This document shows positions 1,270-19,266 of a stretch of DNA of 51,853 nucleotides, one piece after another; within the stretch, counting starts at the first letter, position 1, and every line of letters starts with the position of its first letter. Source of the DNA: a bacterium HR08 (GTDB lineage Bacteria > Acidobacteriota > Blastocatellia > HR10). Location of the stretch: contig BEHK01000001.1 of NCBI GenBank assembly GCA_002898775.1, positions 1 through 51,853 of the forward strand, given 5' to 3'. The position numbers and the translations under genes are program-made. The notes under the pieces were generated by a model that was not told where the DNA came from, ran no database searches, and saw nothing but the letters and a program-made list of their open reading frames with translations.

Positions 1270-2274
1270 TTAGCGGCCTCGCCGTTGCTGTGGCTGCTCC
1301 TCACGGTAGACTTCCGTGTCAGGATAAAAATCGCTCCAGGCGAACCAGAAGAGCGCAATCGAAGGGATGAGAATCCCGCTCTCATCGGTGACGTATCCGG
1401 TCTCCGATTTCTTGTCGAAGTGGATGATGACCTTCTTCCCGTTGATCCGATCCTCGAACCGTTCGGGCTTCTTCTTCAAGATGGCGAACGGATAAGCCTT
1501 CTTCACGCCGTTCACCGAGAGGCCGAGCACGCGCTCCATGGGCCTGAGTTTTACGCCCGACTTCGTCTCTTTGGGCGGCCGCCGGAAGCGCGGCGGCTGG
1601 CCCATCTCCCAGTATTCTTGATAGGGATTCAGGCCGTAATCGCGGCGGAATCCCGTCTCGGGCGAGAGGACGAGCGTCTGAGGATGTTGCGCCCGCCAGT
1701 ACGCCCACGTCGTGTGCAGACTCGGCAGGACCGCGAGCTTCGCTCCTGTCATCGGGCCGGCGATGGCTTCTCCCTTGAGCTGCGACCAGAGACTCTCGGT
1801 CTGGCGGTCGTACATGACCAAGGCCGCCTTGTAGAGTTTGCCCGACACGCCAAAGGTGAATCGCTTGCCGTCAATGATCGGGTCGTACACGACGCCCGAA
1901 CTGCAAAGCGGTCACCAGGTGACGAGAACGGGCCGATCCCCAACCCGATCGTTGACGATCTCGTGCCAGTTGAGGATCTTGATCGGGTAGGCTTTGGCCG
2001 CGCCGGCGAGCGAAACACCTAAGACGCGGTCCCAAGGACGCAGGAATTTTTCGGCCTCGCGAGCCGAGACGAATGTGGGCGAGTCGAGAGCCGGGATGCC
2101 GTCTTTAGGCGGTCCGCCGCCTTGAATGTCTTCGAGTGGAACCGAGCGCTTGGTGACGTCGAACGGGCGCTGACCCGGACCCGCATCGAGATATTGCTTC
2201 TCTTGAACGAACGCGATGAGCCCGCCCGGGCCCATCACGCAACAGAGAGCGGCAATCAGAACCGATGTCTTCAT
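1270..2274 (-). CDS. DUF3179-family exported protein with an in-frame TGA (1912-1914) at the first Cys of the conserved CPxC motif; candidate selenoprotein (UPLC)
   Basis: ORFs 1912-2274 and 1270-1890 are in the same frame (1005 nt in total) and are joined only by a TGA. The read-through gives VLVTW-U-PLCSSGVVYD followed by GVSGKLYKAALVMYDRQTESLWSQ, which is DUF3179-like. It has an N-terminal membrane anchor or signal, and a GGGAGG SD lies 7 nt upstream of the ATG. Confidence 0.7.
1878..1899 (-). promoter_or_regulatory. Candidate SECIS-like hairpin downstream of TGA 1912-1914
   Basis: The RNA ucgggcgucg-ugua-cgacccga forms a bulged 8-bp stem. The apical loop UGUA lies 23-26 nt after the UGA. 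Confidence 0.4.
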
Positions 2275-3000: not shown

Positions 3001-4065
3001 CTACTTGTTGCGTCCCCTTTGGCGAGCGACCGGGGTGTAAATCTTCGTATCCGGGAAGTAGGCGGCCCAGGCGTACCAGGCTCCCGTGTGAGCCGGCACG
3101 GCTGCAAGTTGCTCGCCGCGCAGTCGCCCCGACTCGGCGCGACCGGCCAAGTTCCACCGGGAGCGCGTGGCCGTATCCACCGCATCGAGCCGTTGGCCCT
3201 GCCGATCCGCGTTTTCGAACCGGAGCACGCGCTTGCCCAGCTTGCGCTCGTAAGCGGCTGCGGTGTTCGCCTGTGGGTCGTAGAAGACGACGATCGGCAC
3301 GCCGCCGACGACATCGTTGATCACGCCGCCCGCCTGCTTGAGCGTGGATAAGGGATAGGCTTTGCGTTCATCGCCCAGGGCCACCGCCAGGACCAGCTCC
3401 ATCCTTCCCAATCGCTCATCCCGATGCGTGAGCGTGCGCTCGAAAACGGGGCTGAGCTGCCGGGGCTGCCAGCGGAAGGGCTTGTAGTGGGCTTGATGCG
3501 GCGTCCGGTTGGAAACGATCAGCGTATCGGGATGGAGCTGTTTCCACTTCGCCCAGCTCGTCTGCACGACCGCGAGTTTGTTGAGTCTTTGGCCTGCGAG
3601 CGGGCCGTCCATCGCCTCACCGCTCGTCAACGACCAGACGCTCCCCGTCTCCCGATCGGCGAACACCAGTTCGGCATTATACAACCCGTGAGGCTTGAAC
3701 GTCAGCCGCTTCCCCTCGTCGGTCGCGGAGTCGAACCCGACTCCCGTCCCGCAGACCGGTCAGTAGACGAGGACGATGGAGCGGCCCCTGACGACGTCGT
3801 TGACCACGTGATGATAGGCCATGATCCGGAGCGGATAGGCCCGGCTCTCTCCCTCAAGTGCAATGCCCATCACCGTCTCGTTGTCATCCAGGTAGCCACT
3901 ATCGGGATGGGTGGCGGGGATGAACTCCGGGTTGGTCAACTCCGGGGGGAATTGGGTGACGACGAAGAGCTTGTCTTTTTGGAACTGAGAAAGCGCGTTC
4001 ATAGGTCCCATCGTCAAGAGAGCGACGAGCGGCACCGTCAGGCGGCCGAATCGTCGAAGCGTCAT
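3001..4065 (-). CDS. DUF3179-family exported protein (paralog) with an in-frame TGA (3760-3762) at the first Cys of CPxC; candidate selenoprotein (UPVC)
   Basis: ORFs 3760-4065 and 3001-3684 are in frame (1065 nt). The read-through gives RSIVLVY-U-PVCGTGVGFD followed by LYNAELVFADRETGSVWS. It has a signal-like N-terminus, and an AAGGAGGTGA SD lies upstream. Confidence 0.7.
3727..3744 (-). promoter_or_regulatory. Candidate SECIS-like hairpin downstream of TGA 3760-3762
   Basis: GGAGUCG-GGUU-CGACUCC is a perfect 7-bp stem. The loop GGUU lies 23-26 nt after the UGA, the same register as in the paralog. Confidence 0.5.
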
Positions 4066-5104: not shown

Positions 5105-5554
5105 ATGTCGGGTCGGACGTTTTACATCGGCGAGCTGGCGCGGGCCGTGGGGGTGAAGCCCCAGACGGTTCGCTATTACGAGCGGGAGGGATTGTTGGGA
5201 CGGGCGGCGCGGACGCGTTCGGGCTACCGCCTCTACGATGAGGAGGCGCTCTTGCGGCTGCGCTTCATTCGAGCGGCGCAAGCGCTGGGGCTGTCGCTGG
5301 CGGAGATTCGAGAGCTTGTGGTGCTCAGCCGCGAGGGACGGTCCCCGTGCGCGCGAGTCCGAACCTTGCTCCGAGAAAAGCTTCGGGCGCTGGATCAGAA
5401 GATCGCCGAGCTGCGAGCCTTTCGCCGGGAGCTGGCCGCTCGACTCGCTCAATTGGACGCGATGCCCGATCAAGCAGACTCCTCGCCCTACGTCTGCTCG
5501 CTCATCATGACGCTGGCCCGGCGTCACCGTCCAGATCACGGAAAGGAGGGATGA
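5105..5554 (+). CDS. MerR-family heavy-metal-responsive transcriptional regulator
   Basis: The N-terminal HTH reads YIGELARAVGVKPQTVRYYEREGLL. It has a coiled-coil dimerisation helix and Cys residues at GRSPCARV and PYVCSL. An AGGAGG SD lies upstream. Confidence 0.85.
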   Translation: MSGRTFYIGELARAVGVKPQTVRYYEREGLLGRAARTRSGYRLYDEEALLRLRFIRAAQALGLSLAEIRELVVLSREGRSPCARVRTLLREKLRALDQKIAELRAFRRELAARLAQLDAMPDQADSSPYVCSLIMTLARRHRPDHGKEG

Positions 5555-5557
5555 CCT

Positions 5558-5731
5558 ATGCGACGAACCCGTCGGATCGTGCTGTTGCTGGCCTTGAGCG
5601 TGGCGATCGGATCGGGAGCACTCTATGGGTTCAAGGTGTCGTCCGAGAGCCCGGCGAGCTGCCCGGGTCGGATCGTCTGCCCGCTCACGGGCAAGATCAT
5701 CTGTCGCGACGCCTGTCCGCTGAAGAAGTGA
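5558..5731 (+). CDS. 57-aa membrane-anchored Cys-rich peptide (not in ORF track, under 60 aa)
   Basis: The peptide is MRRTRRIVLLLALSVAIGSGALYGFKVSSESPASCPGRIVCPLTGKIICRDACPLKK. A GGAGGG SD lies 7 nt upstream, and the start is 4 nt after the regulator stop. Confidence 0.5.
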   Translation: MRRTRRIVLLLALSVAIGSGALYGFKVSSESPASCPGRIVCPLTGKIICRDACPLKK

Positions 5732-5749
5732 CGGCGTCGGTCACCGCAG

Positions 5750-5773
5750 GGGAGCGCCTGCGAGGGCGCTCCC
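5750..5773 (+). other. GC-rich stem-loop between the small peptide gene and the next gene
   Basis: GGGAGCGCC-tgcgag-GGCGCTCCC has a 9-bp stem and no U-tract. It may be an attenuator or a processing site. Confidence 0.3.
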
Positions 5774-5813
5774 TCGTGGAGGGAAGGAGGCTGAGATAGA
5801 GAAGCGGCGCGCT

Positions 5814-6101
5814 ATGGTTCGCCGGTGGGGGCCAATCTACAGTGGGGTGGCGGTGCTGGCATCGCTCCCCTGGTGCTGACTGGCGCCGACGGTGTTCGCC
5901 CTGCTCGGGACAGCAGGGACCGTCGCCGCGCACATGATCTTCGTCCGCGGGAATGCGATCTTCGAGGGCCTCACCGTGTACGCTCTGCTGCGCGCGCATT
6001 ATCTGGTGAACGTGAGGGGGCAGGGAGGGCGAACGGCTCGCTTCACGGTGTGGGCGGGGACACTCGTCTCGGCCTTGCTTTGGAGCTTTCGCCTCTTTTG
6101 A
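5814..6101 (+). CDS. MerT/MerF-like small membrane protein with an in-frame TGA (5877-5879) at the second Cys of the TM1 Cys-Cys pair; candidate selenoprotein (C-U)
   Basis: The read-through VLASLPWC-U-LAPTVFALLGTAGTV aligns with ASLCCTGPLVAALLGLGS of the MerT-like proteins at 8310 and 10791. ORF 5892-6101 is in frame with ATG 5814. The product has about three hydrophobic helices. The SD is weak. Confidence 0.55.
5899..5918 (+). promoter_or_regulatory. Candidate SECIS-like hairpin downstream of TGA 5877-5879
   Basis: CCCUGC-ucgggaca-GCAGGG has a 6-7 bp stem. The loop begins 26 nt after the UGA. Confidence 0.35.
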
Positions 6102-6115
6102 CCGGGAACCGTCAC

Positions 6116-7126
6116 ATGCCCTATCGGCCGGAAACTTCGGAATTCGTAGCGGCCTTTGCCTCGACGGCAGAGCCTCAGGAAAAGCCAGCAGGAAAGCCTG
6201 CGCCATTCCGGAGAGCGCGGTCCTGGAGCGCGGCGCTTTTGTTCCTCGGCGGCGTGGGGCTTTCATCGGCTGAACTGCGCGCCCAGACCATCGTGGCTCC
6301 GAGCGCGCGCACGCTCTTCAATCGGGCGACGCTTGTGCGCTTGTCGGTCGAAGTCCGGCATTCGTCCCTTCGAACAGACGGAAGATCAACCGCTGTCACT
6401 CAGTATGTCCCGGTGCTGGCCGTCGTCTATGGATTTCGCCCGAACTGGACGATCATCGTGGCTCAGCCTTACGCGGTCGTAGATGTGACCAACCGGATGG
6501 GGGATGAAACCCGACGAGAGAGCTTGAACGGCCTGGCTGATACGCGGGTGTTTATTCAATACGATGGGCTTTACAGGCGCAACACGCCCGGCGGGCTGAC
6601 GCGGCTATCGGCGGTCTTTGGTGTGCAGGTCCCCACCGGTGCCGATCGGTTCTCAACAGGTGCGGTGGCTTATACTGGCGGAATGATCTTCCAGAAAGCG
6701 GTGAGGTTGAAGCATGTCTTCACCGGAGATTTCGAATATACTCGTGCGACCGAGAACCGTCGGGGCCTCTCGATGGGCGACCGGATCCGGTTTGACGCCG
6801 CTCTGTCGCGCTTTGTTATTTCCCAGGATAAAGCTCCGCCTGGCGCGAGTTGGCCGCGCAAGGCCTTCGATCGCATCTTTCGTTACGGAGCGTACTTCGT
6901 CCTGGAACTCAACGGCACTTGGCAGGCTCGCGCCCGCACTCGCGGAACTCCGATTCCCGACAGCGGCGGGACGATGCTCTCGGTGTCGCCGGGAATCCAG
7001 TGGTTTTTGAGCAACGCGTTTTTGGTCGAGATTTCCGCCCCGATTCCAGTCGTCAAGGCGCTCAGCGGGAAGCAGCCCAAACCCAACTCGACGTTTCTCT
7101 TGGGATTCCGGATTCTGTTTTTCTGA
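6116..7126 (+). CDS. Outer-membrane beta-barrel protein (MetA/transporter-like), signal peptide
   Basis: Starting at ATG 6116 gives a signal-like SWSAALLFLGGVGLSSAELRAQ. The sequence has an alternating beta-strand pattern and ends in LLGFRILFF with a terminal Phe. Confidence 0.5.
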   Translation: MPYRPETSEFVAAFASTAEPQEKPAGKPAPFRRARSWSAALLFLGGVGLSSAELRAQTIVAPSARTLFNRATLVRLSVEVRHSSLRTDGRSTAVTQYVPVLAVVYGFRPNWTIIVAQPYAVVDVTNRMGDETRRESLNGLADTRVFIQYDGLYRRNTPGGLTRLSAVFGVQVPTGADRFSTGAVAYTGGMIFQKAVRLKHVFTGDFEYTRATENRRGLSMGDRIRFDAALSRFVISQDKAPPGASWPRKAFDRIFRYGAYFVLELNGTWQARARTRGTPIPDSGGTMLSVSPGIQWFLSNAFLVEISAPIPVVKALSGKQPKPNSTFLLGFRILFF

Positions 7127-7169
7127 GTATGAGACGACGAAACATTCAGCCTCTTTGGAGGGTTTGAAT

Positions 7170-7733
7170 ATGAGAAAGCAAGGCATGTGGCTTCTGTTTG
7201 TATTTTGCCTTCTTACCGCCGTGCCGGTGTCGGCCCAGGTCGAGAAGGCGAGGGTCAAAATTGACGGCATGATCTGAGGTCTCTGAGCGCGAGGGGCTCA
7301 GAGAGCCCTCCAACGCCTGGATGGCGTTGATCGTGTCGAGGTGAATTTGGTGAAAGGGGAAGCCGAAGTATTTTCCAAGCCCGAGAAGTCTTTCGATCCT
7401 GTCCTGATCCCTAAGGCTCTTCGGGAGGCCGGCTTCACGGCGACCGAGGTCGTGGTGACGGCTGAGGGAACTCTGATCAAGGGGGAGGAAGCCTTCACAC
7501 TGGATGTTCCGGGACTGGCGCACCCGTTTGTGCTGGCCGGCGGAGCACAGGCCGACACGCTCAGAAAACGGACAGACCTCGTGGGGAAGAAAATCCGCGT
7601 GACCGGGAAGCTTCATCCCAGCCATGCGGATCATCCGCCCGGCCTTACGGTCGAGAGCTTTGAGCAGTTGCGCGAGGATGGTCTCGGCCTCGGCGGGAAA
7701 ATGGTGTTGCGCCTGGTGGGGCGGAGAATGTGA
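7170..7733 (+). CDS. Secreted HMA (MerP/CopZ-fold) domain protein whose GMxCxxC metal site is encoded as GM-I-TGA-G-L-TGA; candidate U-x-x-U selenoprotein
   Basis: The signal peptide ends VSA/Q. Then comes VKIDGMI-U-GL-U-ARGAQRALQRLDGVDRVEVNLVKGEAEVF...ALREAGF, a canonical HMA fold. The TGAs are at 7275-7277 and 7284-7286, and everything is in frame with ORF 7341-7733. A GGAGG SD lies 8 nt upstream. Confidence 0.7.
7280..7310 (+). promoter_or_regulatory. Two overlapping, mutually exclusive hairpins at and after the paired TGAs (candidate SECIS)
   Basis: Stem A is UCUCUGAGC-gcgaggg-GCUCAGAGA (9 bp, and it includes the second UGA). Stem B is GAGGG(G)CUC-aga-GAGCCCUC (8 bp with a bulge). Confidence 0.4.
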
Positions 7734-7778
7734 CCTAAGGGCGACCAAATCAAAGTGTCGTCGAGCAAAAATTAGAGC

Positions 7779-7810
7779 TTGACTCTGGAGGCGAGTCCAG
7801 GGTTTATACT
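7779..7810 (+). promoter_or_regulatory. MerR-type promoter-operator
   Basis: In TTGACT-ctggaggcgagtccagggtt-TATACT the spacer is 20 nt. The dyad CyCTGGA-N6-TCCAGrG is imperfect. Confidence 0.65.
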
Positions 7811-7817
7811 TCCGATT

Positions 7818-8285
7818 GTGAAAACGAGCGGAGCAGAAGCGACGCTGTTGAAGATCGGGCAGGTGGCCGCCGAATGCGGCGTGAGCGTGGATACGCTCCG
7901 CTACTACGAGCGGTTGGGGCTTGTGCCCAAACCGGTGCGCACGGCGAGCGGGTATCGGCTCTACGATCGGCGCATCCTGGAGCGCTTGAGCTTCATCAAG
8001 CGGGCGCAGAGCTTCGGCTTCACGCTCGAGGAGATCAAACAGTTGCTCCAATTGCCGACGGCAGAACCGCGGACGTGCGCGGAAGTTCTTCAGGTGATCG
8101 AGCACAAGCTCGACGACCTCGATCGGCGATACGAAGAGATCAAGCGGCTGCGGCGGGAGCTGGCGGCCTACAAGGCCGAGTGCGAGCGGGCTCTCGCCGG
8201 GCGGAAGAGTTGTCCGGTCATCGAAGATTTTCTTCACCCTTCCTCTCGCGCGGCAAAGCCCCGGCGGGGGCGGAAGCGAGAGTGA
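7818..8285 (+). CDS. merR: MerR (mercury-type) transcriptional regulator
   Basis: The HTH reads KIGQVAAECGVSVDTLRYYERLGL. Three Cys residues are placed as in Hg-MerR (EPRTCAEV, AECERA, KSCPVIEDF; compare SCPLI in Tn21 MerR). The start is uncertain: GTG 7818, which would be nearly leaderless, or TTG 7848. Confidence 0.8.
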   Translation: MKTSGAEATLLKIGQVAAECGVSVDTLRYYERLGLVPKPVRTASGYRLYDRRILERLSFIKRAQSFGFTLEEIKQLLQLPTAEPRTCAEVLQVIEHKLDDLDRRYEEIKRLRRELAAYKAECERALAGRKSCPVIEDFLHPSSRAAKPRRGRKRE

Positions 8286-8309
8286 ACGGATGTCGTGGAA
8301 GGAGGGACG

Positions 8310-9116
8310 ATGAGAGAGAAGATCACACTGGGGGCATCACTCATTGGGGCGATCGCGGCGTCGCTCTGCTGCACGGGGCCGCTTGTGGCTGCGCTCCTTG
8401 GCCTGGGCAGTTTCGGCGCGGCGGCGGCCTTCGAGGCCTGGCGACCATATTTGCTCGGCGTCACGGCAGTGCTGCTTCTCGCAGCGTTTTATTTCACCTA
8501 CCGCCGGCCAAAGGTCGCTTGCGCCGAGGGCGCGTGCGCGACGTCCGAGGCTTCGCGGTGGAGCAAGCTCGCGCTGTGGATCGCTGCGGGCGCCGTCATA
8601 GCACTTGCGGCCTTTCCGTATTATTCGGGGCGGCTGTGGGCGGCGCTCGGTCGCCACGCGGGCGGGCCATCGGCGTCACACGCGCAGGCGGCGACCGGCC
8701 GAATCATCACGGCGCGAATGGCCGTCACGGGGATGACCTGCGGCGGGTGCGCAACTGCGCTGGAAGCAGCGCTCAGAGAGATCTCCGGAGTGCAATTGGC
8801 GGCGGCGAGCTACGAGAAAGGCGAAGCCACCGTCGAGTACGATCCGGCGCGGGTCAAGTTAGAAAAGCTTGTGGAAACGGTCAAGGAGACCGGATTCACG
8901 GTCGAAGCTGTGACGGCGACCATCCCTGTCGAAGGGATGACCTGTGCCGGGTGCGCGGTGTCGGTCCGGCAGGCGCTCCTGCAGCGCGATGGGGTGAAGG
9001 CTGTGGAAGTCAGTGTCGAGAAGAAGCACGCCGTCGTGACGTTCGATCCGGCCCGCCTCACCCTCGAGCAAGTGGCCGACGCGATCAACAAAACGGGTTT
9101 CAAGGCCCTCCTGTGA
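8310..9116 (+). CDS. merT: MerT-like mercuric transporter fused to two HMA (MerP-like) domains
   Basis: TM1 reads ASLCCTGP, the loop carries CAEGAC, and there are two GMTCxxC domains (GMTCGGCA and GMTCAGCA). Confidence 0.8.
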   Translation: MREKITLGASLIGAIAASLCCTGPLVAALLGLGSFGAAAAFEAWRPYLLGVTAVLLLAAFYFTYRRPKVACAEGACATSEASRWSKLALWIAAGAVIALAAFPYYSGRLWAALGRHAGGPSASHAQAATGRIITARMAVTGMTCGGCATALEAALREISGVQLAAASYEKGEATVEYDPARVKLEKLVETVKETGFTVEAVTATIPVEGMTCAGCAVSVRQALLQRDGVKAVEVSVEKKHAVVTFDPARLTLEQVADAINKTGFKALL

Positions 9117-9176
9117 GGAGCGCGATCATGGGGATGGCTTATGCCTATCCGAGCCGTTGCTCGAACGTGAGCGACG

Positions 9177-9214
9177 CGGGTACCTCAAGCGATCTCGAGA
9201 TCGCTTGGAGTCCC
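9177..9214. repeat. Palindromic repeat family, copy b
   Basis: The sequence is gggtaCCTCAAGCGATCTCGAGATCGCTTGGAGtcccc. Confidence 0.8.
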
Positions 9215-9262
9215 CACATGGTCTGACGTGCGAGCCCGGTTGGTCGAGGAGGTGGAAGACTC

Positions 9263-9790
9263 ATGTCCGAGTGTTGCCAGGTGCCGATCGTGGCCAATTC
9301 AGCTCACTGCCGCTTGTGCGGGCGGAAAGGACAGTCCGTCACGCGGCGGACGATGGAACACTTGCTCGTGGATTCGGCGAGGGCCCGCCTCGAGGATCAT
9401 CCCTACTTTTTCTGCGCGACGCCGACCTGTCCGGTCGTCTACTTTTCCAACGAGGCGGATTCCTACTTCTGCAAAGGTGATGTGCGCGTGCGGGTGGGAG
9501 TGAAGGAAACCGAAGATCCGGTGCCGATCTGCTATTGCTTCGGCATCACGGAGAAGATGGTGCGCGATGAGATCGCAGCGACGGGACGGACGACGATTCC
9601 CGATTACATCAAGGCGCAAATCAAATCGGGCCGATGCGCTTGTGAGATCATGAATCCTTCGGGCCGATGCTGCCTCGGCGTCGTGACCGGGATCGCGCTC
9701 AGACTAGTGAAGCGATCGGGCTCGACAAGGAAGCGGGAAGAATCTATTGCGGCCTCGATGCCCGAGTGCTGCGCGGTGACGAAGTCGTGA
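9263..9790 (+). CDS. Cys-rich CopZ-family / putative Fe-S metallochaperone-like protein
   Basis: It contains MSECCQVP, CRLCGRKG, YFFCATPTCPVVYF, a BFD-like ICYCFGIT and a C-terminal PECCAV. A GAGGAGGTG SD lies upstream. Confidence 0.6.
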   Translation: MSECCQVPIVANSAHCRLCGRKGQSVTRRTMEHLLVDSARARLEDHPYFFCATPTCPVVYFSNEADSYFCKGDVRVRVGVKETEDPVPICYCFGITEKMVRDEIAATGRTTIPDYIKAQIKSGRCACEIMNPSGRCCLGVVTGIALRLVKRSGSTRKREESIAASMPECCAVTKS

Positions 9791-9799
9791 GGTGGGGTC

Positions 9800-9928
9800 A
9801 TGAGCACAGACTGTTGCGGCGCGGTCGGGCCGAAAGATCTCGTGGCGAACCGGTGGATTTCGCCGGTTGTATGGAGACTGCTGCTTATAGGGAGTTTCGG
9901 CTTAACATCTCAACGCTCCAGCCAATAA
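9800..9928 (+). CDS. 42-aa ORF with an N-terminal DCC motif (possibly a truncated membrane-protein gene)
   Basis: The product is MSTDCCGAVGPKDLVANRWISPVVWRLLLIGSFGLTSQRSSQ. A GAGGTGG SD overlaps the preceding stop codon. Confidence 0.3.
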   Translation: MSTDCCGAVGPKDLVANRWISPVVWRLLLIGSFGLTSQRSSQ

Positions 9929-9993
9929 CCCGGCTGGTTCACCGAGAAAAGGTCAAATACGCCTGTAGGAGTGAAGGCAGAGTGATCCCCAAC

Positions 9994-10030
9994 GGGGGCC
10001 TATGTGATCTATAGATCGCATGGGGTGCCC
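9994..10030. repeat. Palindromic repeat family, copy c (left arm degenerate)
   Basis: The sequence is gggggcctatgtGATCTATAGATCgcatggggtgccc. Confidence 0.7.
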
Positions 10031-10227
10031 AAAGCTCCACGGGGTGAGAGAGCCCCCGTGCGCCTTGGAAAAGGCACCGGTCCGCCCTTCGAGCCTGGAG
10101 GGCGGAATAAGAACCGTTGTGAAGGCGAGTTATTGCGTCTCGGTGGAGCTTGATCGAGATGAACCGCTGCACTCCTGGCATGCTGTCCGAGGCGATGACA
10201 CGTCGCACCTTTGGAGCTTGAGATGCT

Positions 10228-10265
10228 GGTGCCCCACGCGATCTGAGGAATCGTGTGGAGACTCC
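10228..10265. repeat. Palindromic repeat family, copy d (right arm degenerate)
   Basis: The sequence is ggtgccccacgcgatctgaggaatcgtgtggagactcc. Confidence 0.6.
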
Positions 10266-10292
10266 GAGGGCTGGGTCTCACTCAAGAGGTCC

Positions 10293-10324
10293 TTGACTCT
10301 GGAGCTTGCTCTAGGGCTTACAAT
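10293..10324 (+). promoter_or_regulatory. MerR-type promoter-operator
   Basis: In TTGACT-ctggagcttgctctagggct-TACAAT the spacer is 20 nt and the dyad is imperfect. The first 12 nt are identical to the promoter at 7779. Confidence 0.6.
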
Positions 10325-10344
10325 CCGAACCTGGGAGGTCAGCG

Positions 10345-10794
10345 ATGACGGACAAAGCCGTGCTCAAGATCGGCGAAGTGGCTGCGCGAAGTGGCGTCGG
10401 CATTGACACCTTTCGCTACGATGAGCGGCTCGGCTTGTCGCCTCGAGCGGTGCACACCCGGAGCGGTTATCGCGTGTATGATCCGAACGCGATTGATCGA
10501 ATCGCCTTCATTAAGCGGGCCAAGAGCTTCGGTTTCGCCCTCAATGAAATCTGCGATCTCGTCCGGGCTGAGACCGCAGACCCTGAAACCTGCTTCACTG
10601 TGTTGCGGGTGATTGAACGAAAGCTTGGTGATCTGAATCGCCGACATGCAGAGATCAAACGACTGAGGCGAGAGCTGGCCGTCTACAAAGCCACCGGCGA
10701 GCGGGCCATCGCCGACGACAAGGCTCGTCCGGTCATCGAGGATTTTCTTCAGGGCTCCTATCAACGAACGGGCAACGGAGGGAACAAAACATGA
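10345..10794 (+). CDS. MerR-family regulator, paralog lacking two of the three Hg-ligand Cys residues
   Basis: The HTH reads KIGEVAARSGVGIDTFRYDERLGL. It keeps ETCFTV, but where the paralog has AECERALAGRKSCPVIEDF it reads ATGERAIADDKARPVIEDF. Confidence 0.8.
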   Translation: MTDKAVLKIGEVAARSGVGIDTFRYDERLGLSPRAVHTRSGYRVYDPNAIDRIAFIKRAKSFGFALNEICDLVRAETADPETCFTVLRVIERKLGDLNRRHAEIKRLRRELAVYKATGERAIADDKARPVIEDFLQGSYQRTGNGGNKT

Positions 10795-11669
10795 AAAGGG
10801 AGACAACGCTCGTAGCATCCGTGATCGCGGCGATCACGGCTTCGCTCTGCTGCCTGGGGCCGATTGTGGCCGCGGTCGTTGGCCTGGGCAGTTTTGGGGC
10901 GGCGGCTGTGTTCGAGACCTGGCGGCCCTATCTGCTAGGGGTGACCTTTGGGCTGCTCGGGCTGGGGTTTTACTTCACCTATCGCAAGCAGGAAGTACAC
11001 TGCGCCGATAGGAGTGTATGCGCGACGCGCCCTTCAGTAGGTCGGTGGAATAAAATCCTGCTGTGGCTGGCAACAGGTCTCGTCATCGCCTTCGCCACGT
11101 TTCCGTATTACTCCGGAGCAGTCTGGAGGTTCTTGTTGACTAAAGGGGAAACGCAAGCGATAACCGATCCGGCAGCCCCAGGCGATTCGCCGTCACGATC
11201 GAATGAATTCGCCGTGGCGGGCCAAGCCCAACAGCCATCGTCACCAGCGGAGGAACCTCAAACCAGCTCGCCCAAGCTGGCGGCCGAATCTGCACGAGAT
11301 AGAGGGGCCGTTCGGAGGTCAATCTCAGCATCGAAAACATACGGAGGGACTGTTCAGAGGGCGGGCTCAGCATCAAAACCCCTGGCGGCCAACTCGCCAT
11401 CCACCACCGCCGCAATCCGCAATCCGCAAGACGTGCCCGCCCTGACACGCGCAACGATTGAAATTCAAGGCATGCATTGTGCCGGCTGTGCGGTGAATGT
11501 TGAGCAAGCACTCAAGCGACTGCCGGGCGTTAAAGCTGTCGTAGCAAGCTATGAAAAAGGTCAGGCCGTAGTTGAGTACGATCCAGCGAAAGTCAAGCCG
11601 GAACAGCTCAAAGCCGCTATTGACGGGATCGGATACAAGGTCGGAGCGGTGCACACAGCGCAACCGTGA
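10791..11669 (+). CDS. merT: MerT-like transporter fused through a low-complexity linker to one HMA domain
   Basis: It contains ASLCCLGP, the loop CADRSVC and GMHCAGCA. Its start overlaps the regulator stop (ATGA). Confidence 0.8.
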   Translation: MKRETTLVASVIAAITASLCCLGPIVAAVVGLGSFGAAAVFETWRPYLLGVTFGLLGLGFYFTYRKQEVHCADRSVCATRPSVGRWNKILLWLATGLVIAFATFPYYSGAVWRFLLTKGETQAITDPAAPGDSPSRSNEFAVAGQAQQPSSPAEEPQTSSPKLAAESARDRGAVRRSISASKTYGGTVQRAGSASKPLAANSPSTTAAIRNPQDVPALTRATIEIQGMHCAGCAVNVEQALKRLPGVKAVVASYEKGQAVVEYDPAKVKPEQLKAAIDGIGYKVGAVHTAQP

Positions 11670-11765
11670 TTTTGAAATTCTTCCCCGGTTTATCCGAGCC
11701 AGGGAGGAAAGAGGAAGCGCAAGCTGTCGGCTTGCGCCACAGGAATACTTTCGGAGGGAGAAAAG

Positions 11766-12131
11766 ATGGCAAGAGACACAAGAATGGGAATGATCACGGT
11801 AGACTTGGCAGAGTTGAGTCCTGAGATTCATGACGCCTTGGCTCACATTCGGGAAGTCGCCTATGCCGATGGCATCTTCCCCGCGAAAGTGAAGGTGCTC
11901 ACGGCGCTCGCCATTTCCACCATCATCAAGTGCGAGCCGTGCGTGCGGATGTATGTGGAGAAAGCCATAGCCCTCGGCGTCACACGCGAAGAGATGGTCG
12001 AGATGCTCAACGTCGCGATGGCCATGGGCGGCTGCCCGGGCGAGGCTTGGGTGCATAAAGCCCTACTGCTCTATGAGAGCCAAGTGCAAAGGCGACTGGC
12101 GACGGTCTCCAGCGACGCCTGCTGCGCGTAG
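11766..12131 (+). CDS. Carboxymuconolactone decarboxylase (CMD)/AhpD-like family protein with CxxC
   Basis: It contains TIIKCEPCVRMYVEKA and has a C-terminal DACCA. A GGAGGGAG SD lies upstream. Confidence 0.7.
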   Translation: MARDTRMGMITVDLAELSPEIHDALAHIREVAYADGIFPAKVKVLTALAISTIIKCEPCVRMYVEKAIALGVTREEMVEMLNVAMAMGGCPGEAWVHKALLLYESQVQRRLATVSSDACCA

Positions 12132-12198
12132 TCGGTCGCGCGTCGGCCGGAGTCGGCCTTTGACCGATCGAAGCCTTGAGAGAAAGGAGGTGTTCGCT

Positions 12199-12675
12199 AT
12201 GAGGAGCAAGATCACTACCCTGCCTCTTGTGCTCGTCGCTTGTTGCGTTTTACTCCTTGCCGATCCCCCCGCAGTGGCGCAAAGAGCGGGCGAGCCGGTG
12301 GTCGTGAAATCAAAAAACAGTTTTGCCGATACGGTATCCAAGCTGAAGAGTGCCATTCAGCAGAACCAGATGATGGTGCTGTTCGAGGCAAATCATAAAA
12401 ACATGATGGCGATGGTCGGCGTGGAGAGCAAAAACAGCGTCACCGTTCTCTTTGGCCGTCCGCAGATGGGGGCCATGCTGATGGGCGCGGAGCCGAAAGC
12501 GGCGCTGGAGATGCCCATGCGCATCGCTGTGCGCGAGCTGGATAACGGTGAGATTGTGGTCATCTACTACAAGCCGTCATATCTGCTCTCGCATTACAAG
12601 AACGCCAAGCTCGATCCGATCGGCCGGCAGATGGACGCCATGCTGCAGAAGCTCGTAGACGCGGCGACAAAGTGA
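12199..12675 (+). CDS. DUF302-domain secreted protein
   Basis: It has a signal peptide and the segments MVLFEANHKNMMAMVG and EMPMRIAVRELDNGEIVVIYYKP. An AGGAGG SD lies upstream. Confidence 0.7.
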   Translation: MRSKITTLPLVLVACCVLLLADPPAVAQRAGEPVVVKSKNSFADTVSKLKSAIQQNQMMVLFEANHKNMMAMVGVESKNSVTVLFGRPQMGAMLMGAEPKAALEMPMRIAVRELDNGEIVVIYYKPSYLLSHYKNAKLDPIGRQMDAMLQKLVDAATK

Positions 12676-12758
12676 GAGCCGGACCAGGGGCGGTAGCACC
12701 GTCGCTGTTCCCAAGAGAGGGCTTCCCGCCTTAGCTCGATAAGGCCAGAGAGGTTGCC

Positions 12759-14162
12759 ATGCCGGCGGCCCGCACAGAGAGACTGAAGCGCCTGGCTCTC
12801 ATCGCGGGAGTCATCATTGCCGGCATGGCCAAAACCGACCTGCTGGTTGAAAGGGGAGCGATCGTCGCGGCACAGTTGAAATCGCGGGAGGTTAAACAAC
12901 CGCCTGAGATTCCTCTCGGCCCAGATGGAAAGTACGCATTAGAGACATGCACCCGCTGCCATGAGGCCTCTCGCTGGGAGATCGAAGCCAGCGTTCATGG
13001 TCCGGAGTTTCTCAGGCGCAAGGGAATCTCGGCAGAAAAGGCGCGCGAGATCACCTGCCTGACCTGCCACGATTCGCACGGGAAAAGCGAGTTCGCAGCC
13101 GCCAACTTCCCCATCACATCAGGTCGCGATGTCGCCACCTGCTCGAAATGTCATGGGCGAGAGCGCTGGGTCTTCTTCAACCACTTTCATGGGAAGTACT
13201 TTGCTCTGAAAAAGCGCAATATCCCCACCTGCACATATTGCCATGTGGGTCATGAACTGCCACGCGACAACCCGATTTCGCCCATCAACGTTGCCAACGT
13301 CGGGCGCATATGTGCCGGATGTCATGGGGGGAGCGACGAGCAAGCTAAGGTCATCATGGCCGCCAATCTCGGAACGCCTTCCACCTCGCGGGCACTGTAT
13401 CGAAAGAACCTCTTTGGCATCGGCTGGTTGGCCCTGCCCATTAAAGCTTTCTACTCCCTCCTGACGGTGGTGATCTTATTGTTTGGTTTCACGTGCTTGC
13501 GGGAACTCTACTACACCCTCAAGGGGGATTTATCGCCCTCAACTTCAGGTCTGTTCACCGGCTGGTTGGCGGTTCAGACCATCCTCCTTTTCATGTTCTA
13601 CACGCTGCTCGATAGCTCTGGAATTACGCTCCTGTACGCGTACACTCACGGTGACCTCATTTCCAACGTGATGATCCGCATCACGGAACCGCTCCGTCAA
13701 TTCTTCGGGAGTGCAGATGCCCGGAGCTTGATGCACCGGCTGGCCGGACTGGCTTTGATTCTGGGATTCACCGGGCACGTTATCTACCTGGCCATGCATC
13801 GCGACGTCTTCCGACGGTTGCGGATCCAAAGAGAAGATCTCAGGCAAGCGTTCGATGAGTTGAGACGGCGTAAGCCACCGGAGACCGACTGGAAGGTTAA
13901 GGTCGCCTACTGGCTGGTCACCTTTTTGGTAGCCGTCATGCTGCTGACGGGGGTTGGCGAGTGGGCTGCGTTCGAGTTGATGAAATACGTGTCCTACCAG
14001 GTGGTGGAGTACAACAACCTCATCCATGAGTGGAACGGTCGCACCCTCAGCCTGTTCCTCTACGGCATCGTGGTGTTCTTCTTCGGACTCCTGCGGCCTT
14101 TGGCGATCCGGCTGGGCCGCTGGGTGAGCGGGAGAGAAATGCCGACAAGGGAAAGGAGGTGA
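12759..14162 (+). CDS. Inner-membrane multihaem cytochrome: pentahaem c-type domain fused to a polytopic b-type-like membrane domain (CbcL-like architecture)
   Basis: It has five CxxCH motifs (CTRCH, CLTCH, CSKCH, CTYCH, CAGCH) followed by several hydrophobic helices that contain His residues. Confidence 0.65.
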   Translation: MPAARTERLKRLALIAGVIIAGMAKTDLLVERGAIVAAQLKSREVKQPPEIPLGPDGKYALETCTRCHEASRWEIEASVHGPEFLRRKGISAEKAREITCLTCHDSHGKSEFAAANFPITSGRDVATCSKCHGRERWVFFNHFHGKYFALKKRNIPTCTYCHVGHELPRDNPISPINVANVGRICAGCHGGSDEQAKVIMAANLGTPSTSRALYRKNLFGIGWLALPIKAFYSLLTVVILLFGFTCLRELYYTLKGDLSPSTSGLFTGWLAVQTILLFMFYTLLDSSGITLLYAYTHGDLISNVMIRITEPLRQFFGSADARSLMHRLAGLALILGFTGHVIYLAMHRDVFRRLRIQREDLRQAFDELRRRKPPETDWKVKVAYWLVTFLVAVMLLTGVGEWAAFELMKYVSYQVVEYNNLIHEWNGRTLSLFLYGIVVFFFGLLRPLAIRLGRWVSGREMPTRERR

Positions 14163-14168
14163 TCCGTT

Positions 14169-15566
14169 ATGGAGAGGAAGGTAAAGGTTGGTGCCGTTCT
14201 GGCGCTCCTCATTTTGGCCGGAGTGCTTTGGCTCGCCCTGCCCTCGGGCGGGCTCGTTCCTGAGGACGTATCGGTTTCAGCCTCCGAGTTGCCATCGGCG
14301 GAGACGTGCAAACCGTGCCACGAGGAGATCTATAATCAGTGGCGAGAGTCGTATCACGCCCGCTCGATTCACGAGCCTACCTTCCGAGCCATGCTGACCA
14401 TCTTTGCCTACAACACGCGCGGGACGAATCCCGAGGTGTGGGGCCCGAATTATGAGTTCTGTTTTAACTGCCATGCGCCGGAAGTGAAAGTCAAAAACAA
14501 TGCCGCCGAGCTGGCCCGCCAAATCCGCAACGGCGAGAAGATCACGAGCGAAGGGATCACCTGCACGGTCTGTCACTCCATCGAGTGGGTGACGGACATT
14601 CCGGATCCCAATGTGCCGGTCGCATTCGATGTGGGTCCGACACTGCCCTACCACAAAGTGAAAAAGACCGCCTTGTTCGAGCAATCGGTGCTTTGCTCGC
14701 CCTGTCACGATTACAACAATCCGTATGCGGTCGTGGCCCATCAGGTCTATAAATCCGATCCCGGGGTCACGGGCGTGCCGTGCTGTACGGTCAACCGAGA
14801 CTGGAAAAAGACTTCGTATGCCCAAAAAGGCATCACCTGCCAATCCTGCCACATGCGCGAAGAACAGCAGGTCGTCCAGTTAAGTGGGTTCGATAAGTTT
14901 AAAAACATGCTGTACGCCCTGACGGGGCTGACGCGATATCGAGATGACCGGCGGCGCGTCAGTCATACCTTCCCTGGCGGGCGCTCCGAAGAGATGCTCA
15001 AGCGCGCCGTAAAGATGGAGATCGAAGCCGAATCCGCGGGAGACGACATCAAGGCGACCGTCGCTTTGAGAAACCTCACTGGCCATAGCATCCCCAACGG
15101 CTGACCGCCGAGGACGCGCATCGTGCTCAGGTTCTGGGCACAGGACGAACACGGCAATGAACTCTTCTCCGACACGAGAGAATACGGGTTCAACTTCGTT
15201 GATCCGAAAGGCAACGAGCCGGCCATGGTGGATAGCACAAGCGGTCGAGGGTATGAGGTTGTGCTTGAACCCGAGGTGACGCGGCGCGAGTCGTTCGCTT
15301 TCCCCCGGCCTGAAGGGAGCCGGCGGCTTGAGCTGAAGGCGACTCTGACGTACATCTTCTTCGTTCCACCGCCGCCGGACGCCATGAACCGAATGCAACA
15401 GGACATCATCGCTCGGATACAAACCGCTAAGACGCCAGAGGAGAAGGATCGAATTCTGAACGAAGAGATTCCGGCGCGGATGCGGTCCATGAATATCTTG
15501 GCGACAACCTATCCGCCGGTGGTCATGGCGTCCGTGACGAAGGCCTTGGAGATCGGGAGGCGTTGA
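14169..15566 (+). CDS. Periplasmic multihaem cytochrome c (five CxxCH) interrupted by one in-frame TGA (15102-15104); either a read-through (Sec?) product or a pseudogene
   Basis: The haem motifs are CKPCH, CFNCH, CTVCH, CSPCH and CQSCH. ORFs 14169-15104 and 15123-15566 share a frame (1398 nt) and read LTGHSIPNG-TGA-PPRTRIVLRFWAQDEHG. Confidence 0.55.
15123..15141 (+). promoter_or_regulatory. Hairpin downstream of TGA 15102-15104
   Basis: GUGCUCAG-guu-CUGGGCAC has 8 bp including one G-U pair. The loop lies 27-29 nt after the UGA. Confidence 0.3.
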
Positions 15567-15671
15567 GCGGGCCCGATTCCTCTGGTCTGTGAAACACCAG
15601 AGCATCGGGATATTTCACCGCCCATTTGATTGGAGAGGCGGACGGACAATGGTGCTCAATCGGAGGTGTCT

Positions 15672-16415
15672 ATGGCCAGGGAAAGTTTCTGGTGCTTGCG
15701 TCAGGTGTGTATCCTCGATGGCTTGAGCGAGCACGAGCTACAGGAGCTCTCGCGGATCGCGCCGATGCGTCATTTCAAGGCAGGCCAGTTCATTTACCAC
15801 ATCGGCCAGCGGGCCGATATGCTCTACATTATCGGGGAAGGGGAGGTGACGATCTCGACGGTCACGCCCGAGGGGAAAGAGCTCATCCTTGGTCTGTTCA
15901 AAAACGGCGATGTCTTCGGCGAGCTGTTCGCACCCGAAGTGGCGTGCGGAAAGACGGAGGCGAAAGCGCATACCGATGTCTGGCTGTGCGCGCTCACGGA
16001 GCGGGATTTCGTCTCGATATGCAAGCGCCAGCCGGAAGTGGCCATCAACTTCATTCGCGTGCTCATGCGACGGGTGCACGAGCTGCAAGAGGAGGTCGAA
16101 GACCTGGCGTTCGCGACGGCCCGCGAGCGATTCGTGAAGCTGCTCCACAGGCTGTGCGCGGAATCTCAGCAAGAGGCCGCAAAAGCGCCGGAGTGCGTCG
16201 TTCGATATTCTCAAGAGGAACTGGCGCGCATGCTCGGCCTCACCCGCGAGCGCGTGAACGCCGTCATCGCTGAGCTGAAGGAGCGAGGCGTCCTCCGCTC
16301 GCACTACGGCTACCTCACGGTCGATCGAAGTCGCCTGCGCTCGCTTCTTCCGTCGGAAGAAGCGGCCAATTCAGCGTTCCGAACAGGCTATCCCATACGG
16401 GCGGCGGGACGGTGA
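15672..16415 (+). CDS. Crp/Fnr-family transcriptional regulator
   Basis: The cNMP-binding fold reads FKAGQFIYHIGQRADMLYIIGEGEV and the C-terminal HTH reads YSQEELARMLGLTRERVNAVIAELKERGVL. A GGAGGTG SD lies 4 nt before ATG 15672. Confidence 0.85.
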   Translation: MARESFWCLRQVCILDGLSEHELQELSRIAPMRHFKAGQFIYHIGQRADMLYIIGEGEVTISTVTPEGKELILGLFKNGDVFGELFAPEVACGKTEAKAHTDVWLCALTERDFVSICKRQPEVAINFIRVLMRRVHELQEEVEDLAFATARERFVKLLHRLCAESQQEAAKAPECVVRYSQEELARMLGLTRERVNAVIAELKERGVLRSHYGYLTVDRSRLRSLLPSEEAANSAFRTGYPIRAAGR

Positions 16416-16904
16416 ACCCGTAGCAGATGAGGGGCCGATCATCACGTCGCCGGTGGTGTTCGATCTGACGGGCGCGGAGGCGACCGATCACCGGCACTCG
16501 CAAGAGCACGGCGTCCACCAGATTGACGCGAACGAACCCGTGCGCCGTCTCGAAGAAAACGAGATGCGCGGTCACGTCGAGGAAAAAGGCTGCCATCGCG
16601 GGCTTCGGAAGAATGAGCACGGCGACCAGATAGGAGACGGAAAACAGAACCAGGAACACAGACCACTGTCCGACAATATGCCCGAGCGCCTGCGGATCAT
16701 TGGATTGAAAATGCTCGCCGGAAAAATCCGATGATGCCCCAGATGGTGGGCTCGAATGAACCGAGGTCCGGTCAATCTCCGATGCATGGCCAGGGGGTGC
16801 CACAGGTATTCGAAAAGATTCGCATAGAAAGCTCCTGCCCCGATCCAGATCCACCCCAAGGGCGAAGCGCTGAGAGGGGAAAGACGCGGACGGTGGAAGA
16901 TCAT
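16315..16904 (-). pseudogene. Fatty-acid hydroxylase / sterol-desaturase-family membrane protein with a frameshift in an A5/T5 run (16722-16726)
   Basis: The N-terminal frame gives EYLWHPLAMHR and IRAHHLGHHRIF. The C-terminal frame gives FFETAHGFV, HHRRRDD and VWDSLFGT. One extra T would restore the frame. The 3' end overlaps the convergent crp-like gene by about 100 nt. Confidence 0.55.
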
Positions 16905-16960
16905 TGTTGCCGCTTAGGTGAGGACGGCGGCGGAAGCGACCTTGTGGAGCGGCCACGCCC

Positions 16961-17236
16961 TCATAAGGGGTCCTTTGCCGGCACGCTCGATTCCTCCGGC
17001 GGCGAAACCGGATGAACCTCATCGCCACCCGACCGACCGTCGGAGTCCACGCCCTCAAGCACGCGCGGTGACGGGCGTCGGTTCCAGTCCGGCGGCGTAG
17101 CCGGTTCATCCGAAAGAAGGGAGATCACAGAAGCTCGTCGCTGGTGACGCCACTTCATGATCATAGCCAGGATCACGACGGCGAGGGCAAAGCCCACAAA
17201 TCCCAGAGTGAGAAAGTCCGAATGGCTTGACATCAT
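16961..17236 (-). CDS. Small single-pass membrane protein, hypothetical
   Basis: The TM segment is FLTLGFVGFALAVVILAMIM. There is no recognisable domain. Confidence 0.35.
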   Translation of the reverse strand: MMSSHSDFLTLGFVGFALAVVILAMIMKWRHQRRASVISLLSDEPATPPDWNRRPSPRVLEGVDSDGRSGGDEVHPVSPPEESSVPAKDPL

Positions 17237-17508
17237 TTTCTCCCCCTTTTCTCCTCCCCCGACGACCCTTCCAGAAGCCGAAGCGCGATCGGGGGGAGGT
17301 CCTGTTCCTTTTCAAAGCGAGACCGTTCACTTCGTCGCCCATCCGGCTCATCCGCCCGATCCTCAGATGAAGGACGCGGCTGCCACATTGTTTCCTCTCG
17401 GCGCATGATCTCTCGTGCGATCTCGATGACGAATCGCCCGATGAGCAGGAGTCCAATCCCACCATAAAGCAGAACGAAGAGTATCAGGATGATGAACGGA
17501 AGCCTCAT
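17233..17508 (-). CDS. Small single-pass membrane protein, hypothetical
   Basis: The TM segment is LPFIILILFVLLYGGIGLLLIG. Its stop overlaps the downstream start by 4 nt. Confidence 0.35.
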   Translation of the reverse strand: MRLPFIILILFVLLYGGIGLLLIGRFVIEIAREIMRREETMWQPRPSSEDRADEPDGRRSERSRFEKEQDLPPIALRLLEGSSGEEKRGRK

Positions 17509-18021
17509 CTTTTCCCCTCATTTGTCCTCAGAAAGCCGAGCCGAGCGCGGGCCCGATGGCGCGATGCCTATGCCGAGAGGGCGGCCGGTCACGCGTTTCG
17601 CCGGAGGAGATCGTTCGGCCAAACCGATGCCAAGGAGAAGGCGCTTTCGCGGTTCCCATGAGGAGTCAAAGCGTTCGCGAGCCAGGGGCGCGGCTTTTCG
17701 GCCGGGAAAAGGACGGGCGATCGCCCATGGGGATGAGCCGACGAGGCGTTCGCGCACCGTGGGCGTGGGCCTTCGGCCAGGAGGCCAACCCCGCGCCACC
17801 CGGACTGGTTCGATCGCCCGCTTCGGATTCAAACGGTCCTCGTTCATTCCACTTCGGAATCTTAGCCGGAAGATCGGCGATTTCTGCGAAGGATTTCACA
17901 TTCTGCTCGCACAAGCGGTTGGGGCCGTACCGGACATCTCCATGGGGCGAAAGAAGGGCTTGAGCCTGGAGCAACTCCAGGGTTTATCCTAAAGCTGCAG
18001 GACCGAAGAAGAGAAAGGGCT

Positions 18022-19262: not shown

Positions 19263-19266
19263 ACAG

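Follow-up and report, generated by a model that had tools for sequence, protein, structure and literature searches.

The first 51,853 nucleotides of contig BEHK01000001.1 (assembly GCA_002898775.1) from bacterium HR08, a soil-type member of the Acidobacteriota, are referred to here as the window. A gene on its forward strand (7170..7733), encoding a secreted protein with a heavy-metal-associated (HMA) domain, contains two in-frame TGA codons, UGA1 (7275..7277) and UGA2 (7284..7286), at the first and the second ligand positions of a GMxCxxC metal site. Comparison with its relatives supports it well as a real double-UGA (UxxU, with U for selenocysteine, Sec) selenoprotein gene. The product is probably, by analogy, a MerP-like periplasmic protein that binds or hands off soft metals through a diselenolate site, the metal most likely being Hg(II). 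Directly downstream of the UGAs, two adjacent RNA hairpins, B (7293..7309) and C (7311..7329), are conserved in the TGA-bearing genes. The preferred joint reading, which is fairly likely, is that of a MerP-like UxxU Hg(II) binder, in which both UGAs are recoded via SelB and tRNA-Sec, with hairpin C as the selenocysteine insertion sequence (SECIS) and hairpin B as an accessory element.

The gene has 187 codons, the two TGAs included, and ends in its own stop codon (TGA 7731-7733); a GGAGGG ribosome-binding site is situated 8 nt 5′ of ATG 7170. The in-frame translation (7170-7736) reads MRKQGMWLLFVFCLLTAVPVSAQVEKARVKIDGMI*GL*ARGAQRALQRLDGVDRVEVNL..., in which the internal stops are TGA 7275-7277 and TGA 7284-7286. 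A typical signal peptide (MRKQGMWLLFVFCLLTAVPVSA, 7170..7235), read from the sequence, ends in ...AVPVSA and is followed by QVEK, with a predicted cleavage after VSA; the orthologs also keep a hydrophobic N-terminus followed by A-Q-V. The HMA domain (7254..7436, residues 29-89) matches Pfam PF00403 with E=1.6e-11 and with 44.8 bits against a gathering threshold of 24.8 when U is modelled as C. Both TGAs are located inside this match and fall exactly on the two ligand positions (GMI-U-GL-U). The claim of the original prediction, made from the sequence alone, that two TGAs replace both cysteines of the site is hence confirmed by the in-frame translation and by the Pfam match across both codons.

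The C-terminal domain (7446..7667, forward strand) forms an OB-fold-like β-barrel in an AlphaFold2 model with a pLDDT (predicted local distance difference test) of 81. Its Pfam matches to DUF5818 and DUF4431 are weak and sub-threshold. A Foldseek search of this domain against the PDB returned OB-fold proteins at a probability of ~0.99, but with E>=8e-3, giving a weak OB-fold similarity and no functional assignment. A C-terminal extension (EQLREDGLGLGGKMVLRLVGRRM, 7668..7730) is common only to the clade of bacterium HR10 (L001, L004, L016, and L021); the other orthologs end near ...TVE.F...P without it.

Conservation of the two UGA codons

More than 120 relatives were collected from a search space of 5.8 billion proteins, and DNA was fetched for 43 loci (L-numbered) from GTDB genomes (13 metagenome-assembled genomes, MAGs, of Acidobacteriota) and from metagenomes. 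About 35 distinct orthologs originate from independent assemblies, both Acidobacteriota MAGs and metagenomes, with protein identities of 43-91%; codon conservation was counted on 32 distinct ortholog sequences. The Acidobacteriota-type orthologs possess the motif GM[ISVTAGY]-TGA-[GPS]L-TGA, and both TGAs are kept in all but one clade. UGA1 is TGA in 30/32 sequences and TGT (Cys) in 2/32, and UGA2 is TGA in 32/32; UGA2 is also aligned with the single TGA (18876) of a paralog in the window. The exception clade, which contains bacterium HR10 and the relatives L001, L004, L021, and L023, carries TGT-CCC-CT[CT]-TGA, that is, CxxU. CxxC is found in distant homologs that likewise combine a signal peptide, an HMA domain, and a C-terminal domain, including L014 (Cyclobacteriaceae), L015 (Spirochaetia), P0181, P0184, P0185, P0187, P0190, P0197, and P0198. 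The motif context is nearly identical in the Cys and the Sec forms, as in GMSCPFCAFGVEKKL versus GMV-U-PL-U-AYGAEKAL. Two features by which selenoprotein genes are recognized are therefore present in these data: Sec/Cys pairs exist at both UGAs, and the UGAs are conserved together with coding conservation on both flanks. The original prediction had made its motif assignment dependent on the existence of Cys homologs; these were looked for, and both CxxU and CxxC forms were found.

Two independent nonsense mutations at exactly the ligand codons had been regarded as very unlikely from the outset, which agrees with TGA at the same two codons in the ~35 distinct orthologs. TGA is also the ordinary stop in 23/28 Pfam-supported genes of the window, the HMA gene included. 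Because of the TGA conservation, the Sec/Cys pairs, and the use of TGA as an ordinary stop, taken together, sequencing error, independent nonsense mutation, and codon reassignment are excluded by sequence comparison. The reassignment of TGA to a standard amino acid (Trp or Gly), as in a Joint Genome Institute gene call (P0002) that reads through with W at both TGA positions, has a negligible probability: TGA terminates those 23 domain-supported genes, the G+C content is ~60%, and Trp or Gly at both ligand positions would destroy the HMA metal site. Termination at UGA1 is the reading implied by the public gene callers, which annotate nearly all relatives as fragments of 100-130 aa starting just past the second TGA. 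In that case, the gene would be a pseudogene or a split gene, with a product only from the open reading frame (ORF) starting at GTG 7341, or with none. Such termination is highly improbable, however. The amino acids are conserved in frame before, between, and after the TGAs, the Pfam HMA match covers them, and the signal peptide would be cut off from the domain that it exports. Furthermore, both TGAs persist over the whole range of protein identities, and the hairpin pair follows only in TGA-bearing genes.

The residue inserted at both UGAs would be selenocysteine. That TGA is kept almost without exception in preference to Cys codons speaks for Sec, and UGA appears to encode something that Cys cannot replace, because UGA2 is never swapped for a Cys codon among the 32 distinct orthologs and UGA1 is swapped on one occasion only. 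The same counts bear against the improbable alternative that one or both UGAs are read as Cys via a SelB-dependent tRNA-Cys-like tRNA (tRNA-ReC, selC*), which would yield a CxxC, CxxU, or UxxC site. This alternative gains from the tolerance of Cys at position 1 in the TGT clade and from the UXXU hydrogenases, in whose genomes tRNA-ReC-like genes are enriched and UGA may be Cys (PMC13582414). However, such a tRNA was seen neither in the window nor in the fetched loci, which together represent a small part of each genome. In Escherichia coli, the decoding efficiency is 30-40% per UGA (PMC4513850); if this efficiency held here, two UGAs would cost roughly 85-90% of the product, which would imply strong selection for Sec at both ligands. 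The competence of the host for Sec insertion is suggested by five independent UGA-recoded gene candidates within one window.

RNA hairpins downstream of the UGAs

The RNA was compared in an alignment (A2) of 30 distinct sequences that begins 12 nt 5′ of UGA1 and ends 72 nt 3′ of UGA2, column c corresponding to window position 7262+c. The 81-nt region of the window folds far better than its shuffles (z = -4.3), and the RNAalifold consensus of the 30 sequences consists of exactly two adjacent hairpins, with pairs 7293-7298/7304-7309 in B and 7311-7317/7323-7329 in C. Standard pairs account for 97.7% of this structure, as against 27-48% when the partners are slid by 1-3 columns, and the observed pairing was reached in 0/500 shuffles.

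In hairpin B, the stem GGGGC(N)/(N)GCCCU is conserved and 96% paired. Its core, GGGGC/GCCCU, is invariant, while at the sixth position 20 sequences form C-G, 2 form U-A, 2 form U-G, and 6 are mismatched. The loop is variable and tracks the encoded residues, appearing as GAAAA, CAAAA, CGAAA, AAGAA, AGA, and others. Hairpin C (CAACGCC-UGGAU-GGCGUUG in the window) is 99% paired and constitutes the best candidate for a SelB-binding SECIS. Compensatory changes occur at 7312:7328, where 16 sequences have A-U and 14 have G-C, and at 7311:7329, where 26 have C-G and 2 have G-C; G-U intermediates occur elsewhere. The C loop carries UGG in 30/30 sequences, in the forms UGGAU, UGGAA, UGGAG, or UGGUU.

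Selection on both hairpins acts at the RNA level. Synonymous sites are frozen at Gly 7293 (GGG, 32/32), Ala 7305 (GCC, 30/31), Arg 7314 (CGC, 32/32), Leu 7317 (CTG, 32/32), and Gly 7323 (GGC, 31/32), whereas conserved four- or six-fold degenerate codons outside the stretch of B and C utilize 3-6 codons each. The mean synonymous codon entropy is 0.47 bits within 7293-7328 versus 1.56 elsewhere (Mann-Whitney p=5e-5). The 37-nt stretch of B and C has a mean folding energy of -21.7 kcal/mol in 23 distinct Sec forms, and only -0.9 to -8.8 kcal/mol in 5 Cys forms, two of which have 68-70% G+C. A covariance model (R1) formed from UGA2, B, and C recognizes every family member with 64-77 bits, has the paralog (18750..19262) as its one extra match (21.8 bits), and gives no match in the five Cys-form loci. 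A third hallmark of selenoprotein genes, a SECIS-like stem-loop in the Sec forms but not in the Cys forms, is hence also observed. In Rfam searches, covering the whole window at gathering thresholds and 7200-7420 in a permissive scan, no SECIS or other family was found, the matches being at chance level.

The original prediction contained two overlapping, mutually exclusive hairpins, A and B. Both are present in the sequence: hairpin A (7280..7304, forward strand) is a perfect 9-bp inverted repeat (7280-7288 TCTCTGAGC / 7296-7304 GCTCAGAGA), extendable to 7276-7310, with UGA2 inside the stem arm 7280-7288, and the core of B (7293-7299/7303-7309) overlaps it. Hairpin A exists only in the window and its near-identical relative L016. 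It was rejected as a conserved element, being 65% paired over the orthologs, equal to the shuffled controls. The exclusivity survives in part. A and B overlap and would compete in free RNA, but A is not conserved, and while either UGA is being read, the ribosome covers ~11 nt beyond its A site (PMC4513850), a stretch in which the 5′ arm of A (7276-7288) is located; the conflict would therefore vanish at the moment of decoding. The RNA model requires correction in detail: A is incidental, B is conserved in its stem alone, and the SECIS-like hairpin C, situated outside both, was overlooked.

Two other helices were tried and rejected. A lower stem (7287-7292/7331-7336), which would create a three-way junction, is 57% paired. 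An outer helix (7266-7273/7330-7337), with 71% pairing, is specific to a clade and does not characterise the family as a whole. In the Blastocatellia-like clade, GGCAUGAU (the Gly-Met-Ile codons) can pair at these outer positions with AUC[AG]UGCC (the Asp-His/Arg-Ala codons); His (CAU) and Arg (CGU) both preserve the pairing, and the helix would enclose both UGAs and both hairpins.

Proposed assignment of the SECIS and decoding of both UGAs

The consensus of the bacterial SECIS (bSECIS), namely the bSECISearch model of Zhang & Gladyshev 2005 as summarised in PMC13188914, comprises a loop of 3-9 nt and an upper stem of 4-16 bp with an energy <= -7.5 kcal/mol (Fig. 2 legend). In addition, one of the first two loop nucleotides is a G, in most cases with G or U next to it on the 3′ side, and the distance from UGA to the apical loop is 16-37 nt (PMC13188914). 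Hairpin C agrees with the stem, loop, and G rules, having a 7-bp stem, a 5-nt loop, and ~-10.7 kcal/mol. Its loop is located 31 nt past UGA2, within the published range, and 40 nt past UGA1, which exceeds the range by 3 nt. For hairpin B, the loop is located 22 nt past UGA1, within the range, and 13 nt past UGA2, outside it. The other candidate SECIS hairpins of the window possess the loops CGUGU, GGUU, and CGGGAC (GG- or GU-type), 20-26 nt past their UGAs. A G occurs within the first two positions of the B loop in 20/30 sequences, and 8 of the 10 failing sequences are UxxU genes.

These distances open the way to an arrangement with two SECIS, in which B would recruit a SelB complex for UGA1 and C a second, pre-loaded complex for UGA2, and no SelB reloading would be needed within three codons. 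The pairings UGA1-B (22 nt) and UGA2-C (31 nt) both fit 16-37 nt, but the cross pairings (13 and 40 nt) do not, and the UGA1-B distance resembles the 20-26 nt seen for the further SECIS candidates of the window. Furthermore, the B stem is under synonymous constraint, and the B loop of the window (AGA) has G at position 2. Such an arrangement, although a serious rival, is unlikely. The B loops of the eight UxxU orthologs without an early G are CAAAA in five and CAGAA, AAGAA, and ACAAAAG in one each; where the loop G is present, most B loops continue as GA, not GG or GU. The CxxU clade also retains hairpin B, and B-like hairpins accompany the single-UGA paralog and its ortholog L048. Since eight UxxU orthologs have B loops that break the G rule, and CxxU genes still carry B, B does not appear to be a UGA1-specific SECIS.

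The paralog of the HMA protein (18750..19262, forward strand; 28% identity, BLASTP E=2e-8) carries a single TGA (18876-18878) that is aligned with UGA2, and no longer has the GMxC portion of the metal site. The sequence CAACGCC-AGGCU-GGCGUUG begins exactly 24 nt past this TGA, which is the position of hairpin C, with a nearly identical sequence. In the paralog ortholog L048 (1070..1591; an Acidobacteriota MAG), with 59% identity, the TGA is kept, and a C-like hairpin contains a C-to-U change that preserves pairing. Directly 5′ of this hairpin, L048 forms a B-like hairpin, GAGGG-CUA-CCCUC, versus GAGC-GGCAU-GCUC in the window paralog. Since the paralog, L048, and the CxxU clade carry B or a B-like hairpin, B accompanies C at the sequence level even where the UGA2-equivalent codon alone exists. 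The energy of hairpin B has a mean of -9.9 kcal/mol in UxxU genes (range -3.8 to -11.5), and is -7.1 in CxxU genes and -3.7 in the paralog, a suggestive comparison that is not decisive, because the UxxU range overlaps both other values.

From these comparisons, hairpin C is the likelier candidate for the SECIS proper, serving both UGAs. Its likeness to the bSECIS and the E. coli fdhF SECIS includes the 7-bp stem, the 5-nt loop, and the G at position 2 followed by another G; unlike in those elements, there is no lower stem around UGA, and the independent 5′ hairpin B occupies that place. In the proposed mechanism, SelB and tRNA-Sec would recode both UGAs through the two-hairpin element directly 3′, with hairpin C (loop UGGAU) as the SelB-binding SECIS and hairpin B as an accessory helix. 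With UGA1 in the ribosomal A site, hairpin A would be melted and B free to fold, drawing C to a distance of 15 nt plus one helix width. With UGA2 in the A site, the 5′ arm of B would lie inside the mRNA tunnel, and C would be 24 nt downstream. The folding of B may thereby roughly equalise the distance of C to both codons. A variant, which is doubtful, is that B and C together form a specialised bipartite SECIS, in which B would serve either as a spacer that can collapse or as an additional landing pad for SelB. If true, a bipartite SECIS would explain how two selenocysteines are inserted three codons apart, and would supply a new rule for the relaxed geometry of bacterial SECIS elements.

Several points weigh against the reading in which hairpin C serves both UGAs of a MerP-like selenoprotein. 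The 40 nt between UGA1 and the C loop exceed the published consensus, and the spacing between UGA and SECIS is strict in E. coli fdhF. The free RNA of the window prefers the extended hairpin A plus C (-32.9 kcal/mol) over B plus C (-23.6 kcal/mol), and the strong conservation of the B stem is without a proven role. With regard to the inserted residue, the sequence alone cannot tell Sec from SelB-dependent Cys insertion through tRNA-ReC. Neither the 51.8-kb window nor the fetched loci yielded selA, selB, selC, or selD, and searches for tRNA and tRNA-Sec in the window and 28 loci found none. In addition, the protein of the window falls below the curated cutoffs of MerP and of the UxxU family NF041115, and the metal and the partner proteins are deduced from the gene context alone.

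Genomic context and comparison with known systems

The HMA gene belongs to an operon headed by a MerR-family regulator (5105..5554, forward strand; Pfam MerR_1 and MerR-DNA-bind), which is conserved upstream in the related loci. It is followed by a 57-aa Cys-rich membrane peptide (5558..5731, forward strand) that contains a single hydrophobic segment and four Cys residues (CPGRIVCPLTGKIICRDAC); this ORF, situated between the MerR and the MerT-like genes, is 89-98% identical in L001, L004, L016, and L021, and no Pfam or NCBIfam family match to it was found. The MerT-like membrane protein (5814..6101, forward strand; 95 aa) has an in-frame TGA (5877-5879) in the first transmembrane segment (LPWC-U-LAP). 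This TGA is kept in L001, L004, L008, L013, L016, and L021, and is replaced by Cys in L015 and L038; a hairpin with the loop CGGGAC is located 26 nt 3′ of it. The similarity of the protein to merT_RC607 is weak (E=5e-5). An outer-membrane β-barrel of the Phenol_MetA_deg family (6116..7126, forward strand; Pfam E=3.4e-8) is situated directly 5′ of the HMA gene, and the two genes are paired in nearly all orthologous loci with enough flank, as well as in the Cys-form loci. The HMA protein may act with this barrel and with the MerT-like C-U protein under the MerR-type regulator.

The surrounding region (5105..25200) is a mercury-type resistance island, as indicated by Pfam and NCBIfam matches of the window genes. 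MerR-family regulators start at 5105, 7779, and 10345, the second with Hg-type Cys spacing. The island further contains two MerT-HMA fusions (8295..9116 and 10791..11669), a CopZ_Nterm_CC Fe-S protein (9263..9790), two multihaem cytochromes (12759..15104), TauE (19512..20351), and MerA with an N-terminal HMA domain (23479..25200), together with a DUF302 gene, a Crp-type regulator, and MerB (18022..18753), which the paralog overlaps by 4 nt. The context of a MerP-type protein, in which a signal peptide and an HMA domain are encoded among mer genes, is hence present, and the island with its MerA, MerB, and MerTP would be the setting in which the HMA protein acts.

Apart from the HMA gene, four further Sec/Cys-type candidates exist in the window, namely the paralog, the MerT-like gene, and two DUF3179 genes on the reverse strand. 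The first DUF3179 gene (2274..1270) has its TGA at 1914-1912 (VTW-U-PLC), with a PF11376 match across it (E=3.9e-88), a hairpin loop CGUGU that begins 20 nt 3′ of the TGA, and close copies in L001, L004, L036, and L037. The second (4065..3001) has its TGA at 3762-3760 (LVY-U-PVC; Pfam E=1e-73) and a 7-bp hairpin with the loop GGUU 22 nt 3′ of the TGA. DUF3179 with UxxC is a listed selenoprotein family (PMC13188914). The window thus appears to hold a mer-type island with at least five UGA-recoded genes, which point to a systematic use of selenium in soft-metal (Hg) handling in Acidobacteriota. Selenolate-Hg chemistry should capture periplasmic metal more tightly and faster than thiolates.

The original prediction called a tandem UxxU site unusual for bacteria, which overstates the case. 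The NCBIfam family NF041115, PMC9312934, PMC13188914, and the UXXU hydrogenases (PMC13582414) are already on record. A UxxU protein with 2 Sec, named putative mercuric reductase / metal-binding protein, is tabulated in PMC9312934 and PMC13188914, where the UxxU mercuric reductase entry is credited to Zhang & Gladyshev 2007. UxxU is known also in Prx-like and FmdB-family proteins (PMC9312934, PMC2398784), and the selenoprotein families of the GOS survey include MerP and a putative mercuric transport protein (PMC2398784); neither MerP nor Acidobacteria is mentioned in the Sargasso Sea paper or in Peng 2016. UxxU HMA selenoproteins are hence already known as a kind, while the family of the window is not covered by the existing models and has another architecture.

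NF041115 (UxxU_metal_bind) shares with the window protein an HMA-type fold in which both Cys of the CxxC site are UGA-encoded, and ranks as its best or second-best NCBIfam similarity. The cutoff of 95 bits is not reached by the window protein (49.3) or by three orthologs (31.8-41.2). NF041115 is a single-domain model of 74 residues, whereas the window protein adds a signal peptide, the OB-like domain, and a conserved outer-membrane partner. MerP (TIGR02052) resembles the window protein in its signal peptide, its HMA domain with GMxCxxC-type ligands, and its mer-type surroundings (MerT-like, MerR, MerA, and MerB). Its cutoff of 92.55 is likewise not reached, the window protein scoring 32.1 bits and 30-34 with the three orthologs included. 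MerP is a single HMA domain of ~90 residues, in contrast to the 187 residues of the window protein with its extra domain and both ligands predicted to be Sec; moreover, the window protein has an outer-membrane barrel as its partner, a component absent from classical mer operons. NF045683, a MerT/CopZ fusion-like selenoprotein, is similar in being an HMA selenoprotein of mercury/copper transport, and the window also has a MerT-like C-U protein. However, it is a membrane fusion of 235 residues, and the window protein reaches 27.5 bits against a cutoff of 375, with separate MerT-like and HMA genes.

In the group 4 [NiFeSe] hydrogenases with UXXU, a set that includes Acidobacteriota, a single SECIS has been proposed for both codons (PMC13582414, 2026). 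The likeness lies in two UGAs two codons apart at metal ligands, and UXXU and CXXU relatives have a common downstream SECIS, as in the HMA family. The hydrogenase protein is unrelated, and the HMA family possesses two adjacent conserved hairpins together with comparative evidence on the SECIS loop. How SelB and SECIS decode two UGAs 9 nt apart is a question raised again in 2026 (PMC13582414), for which the HMA family represents a compact 55-nt system of tandem-UGA decoding, well sampled and with natural UxxU, CxxU, and single-U variants. In present annotation, more than 100 clusters of this family are called N-terminally truncated 'hypothetical' or 'HMA domain' proteins, without the signal peptide and the metal site; the true product of these mis-annotated genes would be a secreted diselenolate metal-binding protein.

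Opposite the HMA and MerR genes, the reverse strand contains a 363-aa ORF (7146..8237), and further long ORFs are likewise antisense to real genes. These long antisense ORFs are artefacts of the 60% G+C, not genes.

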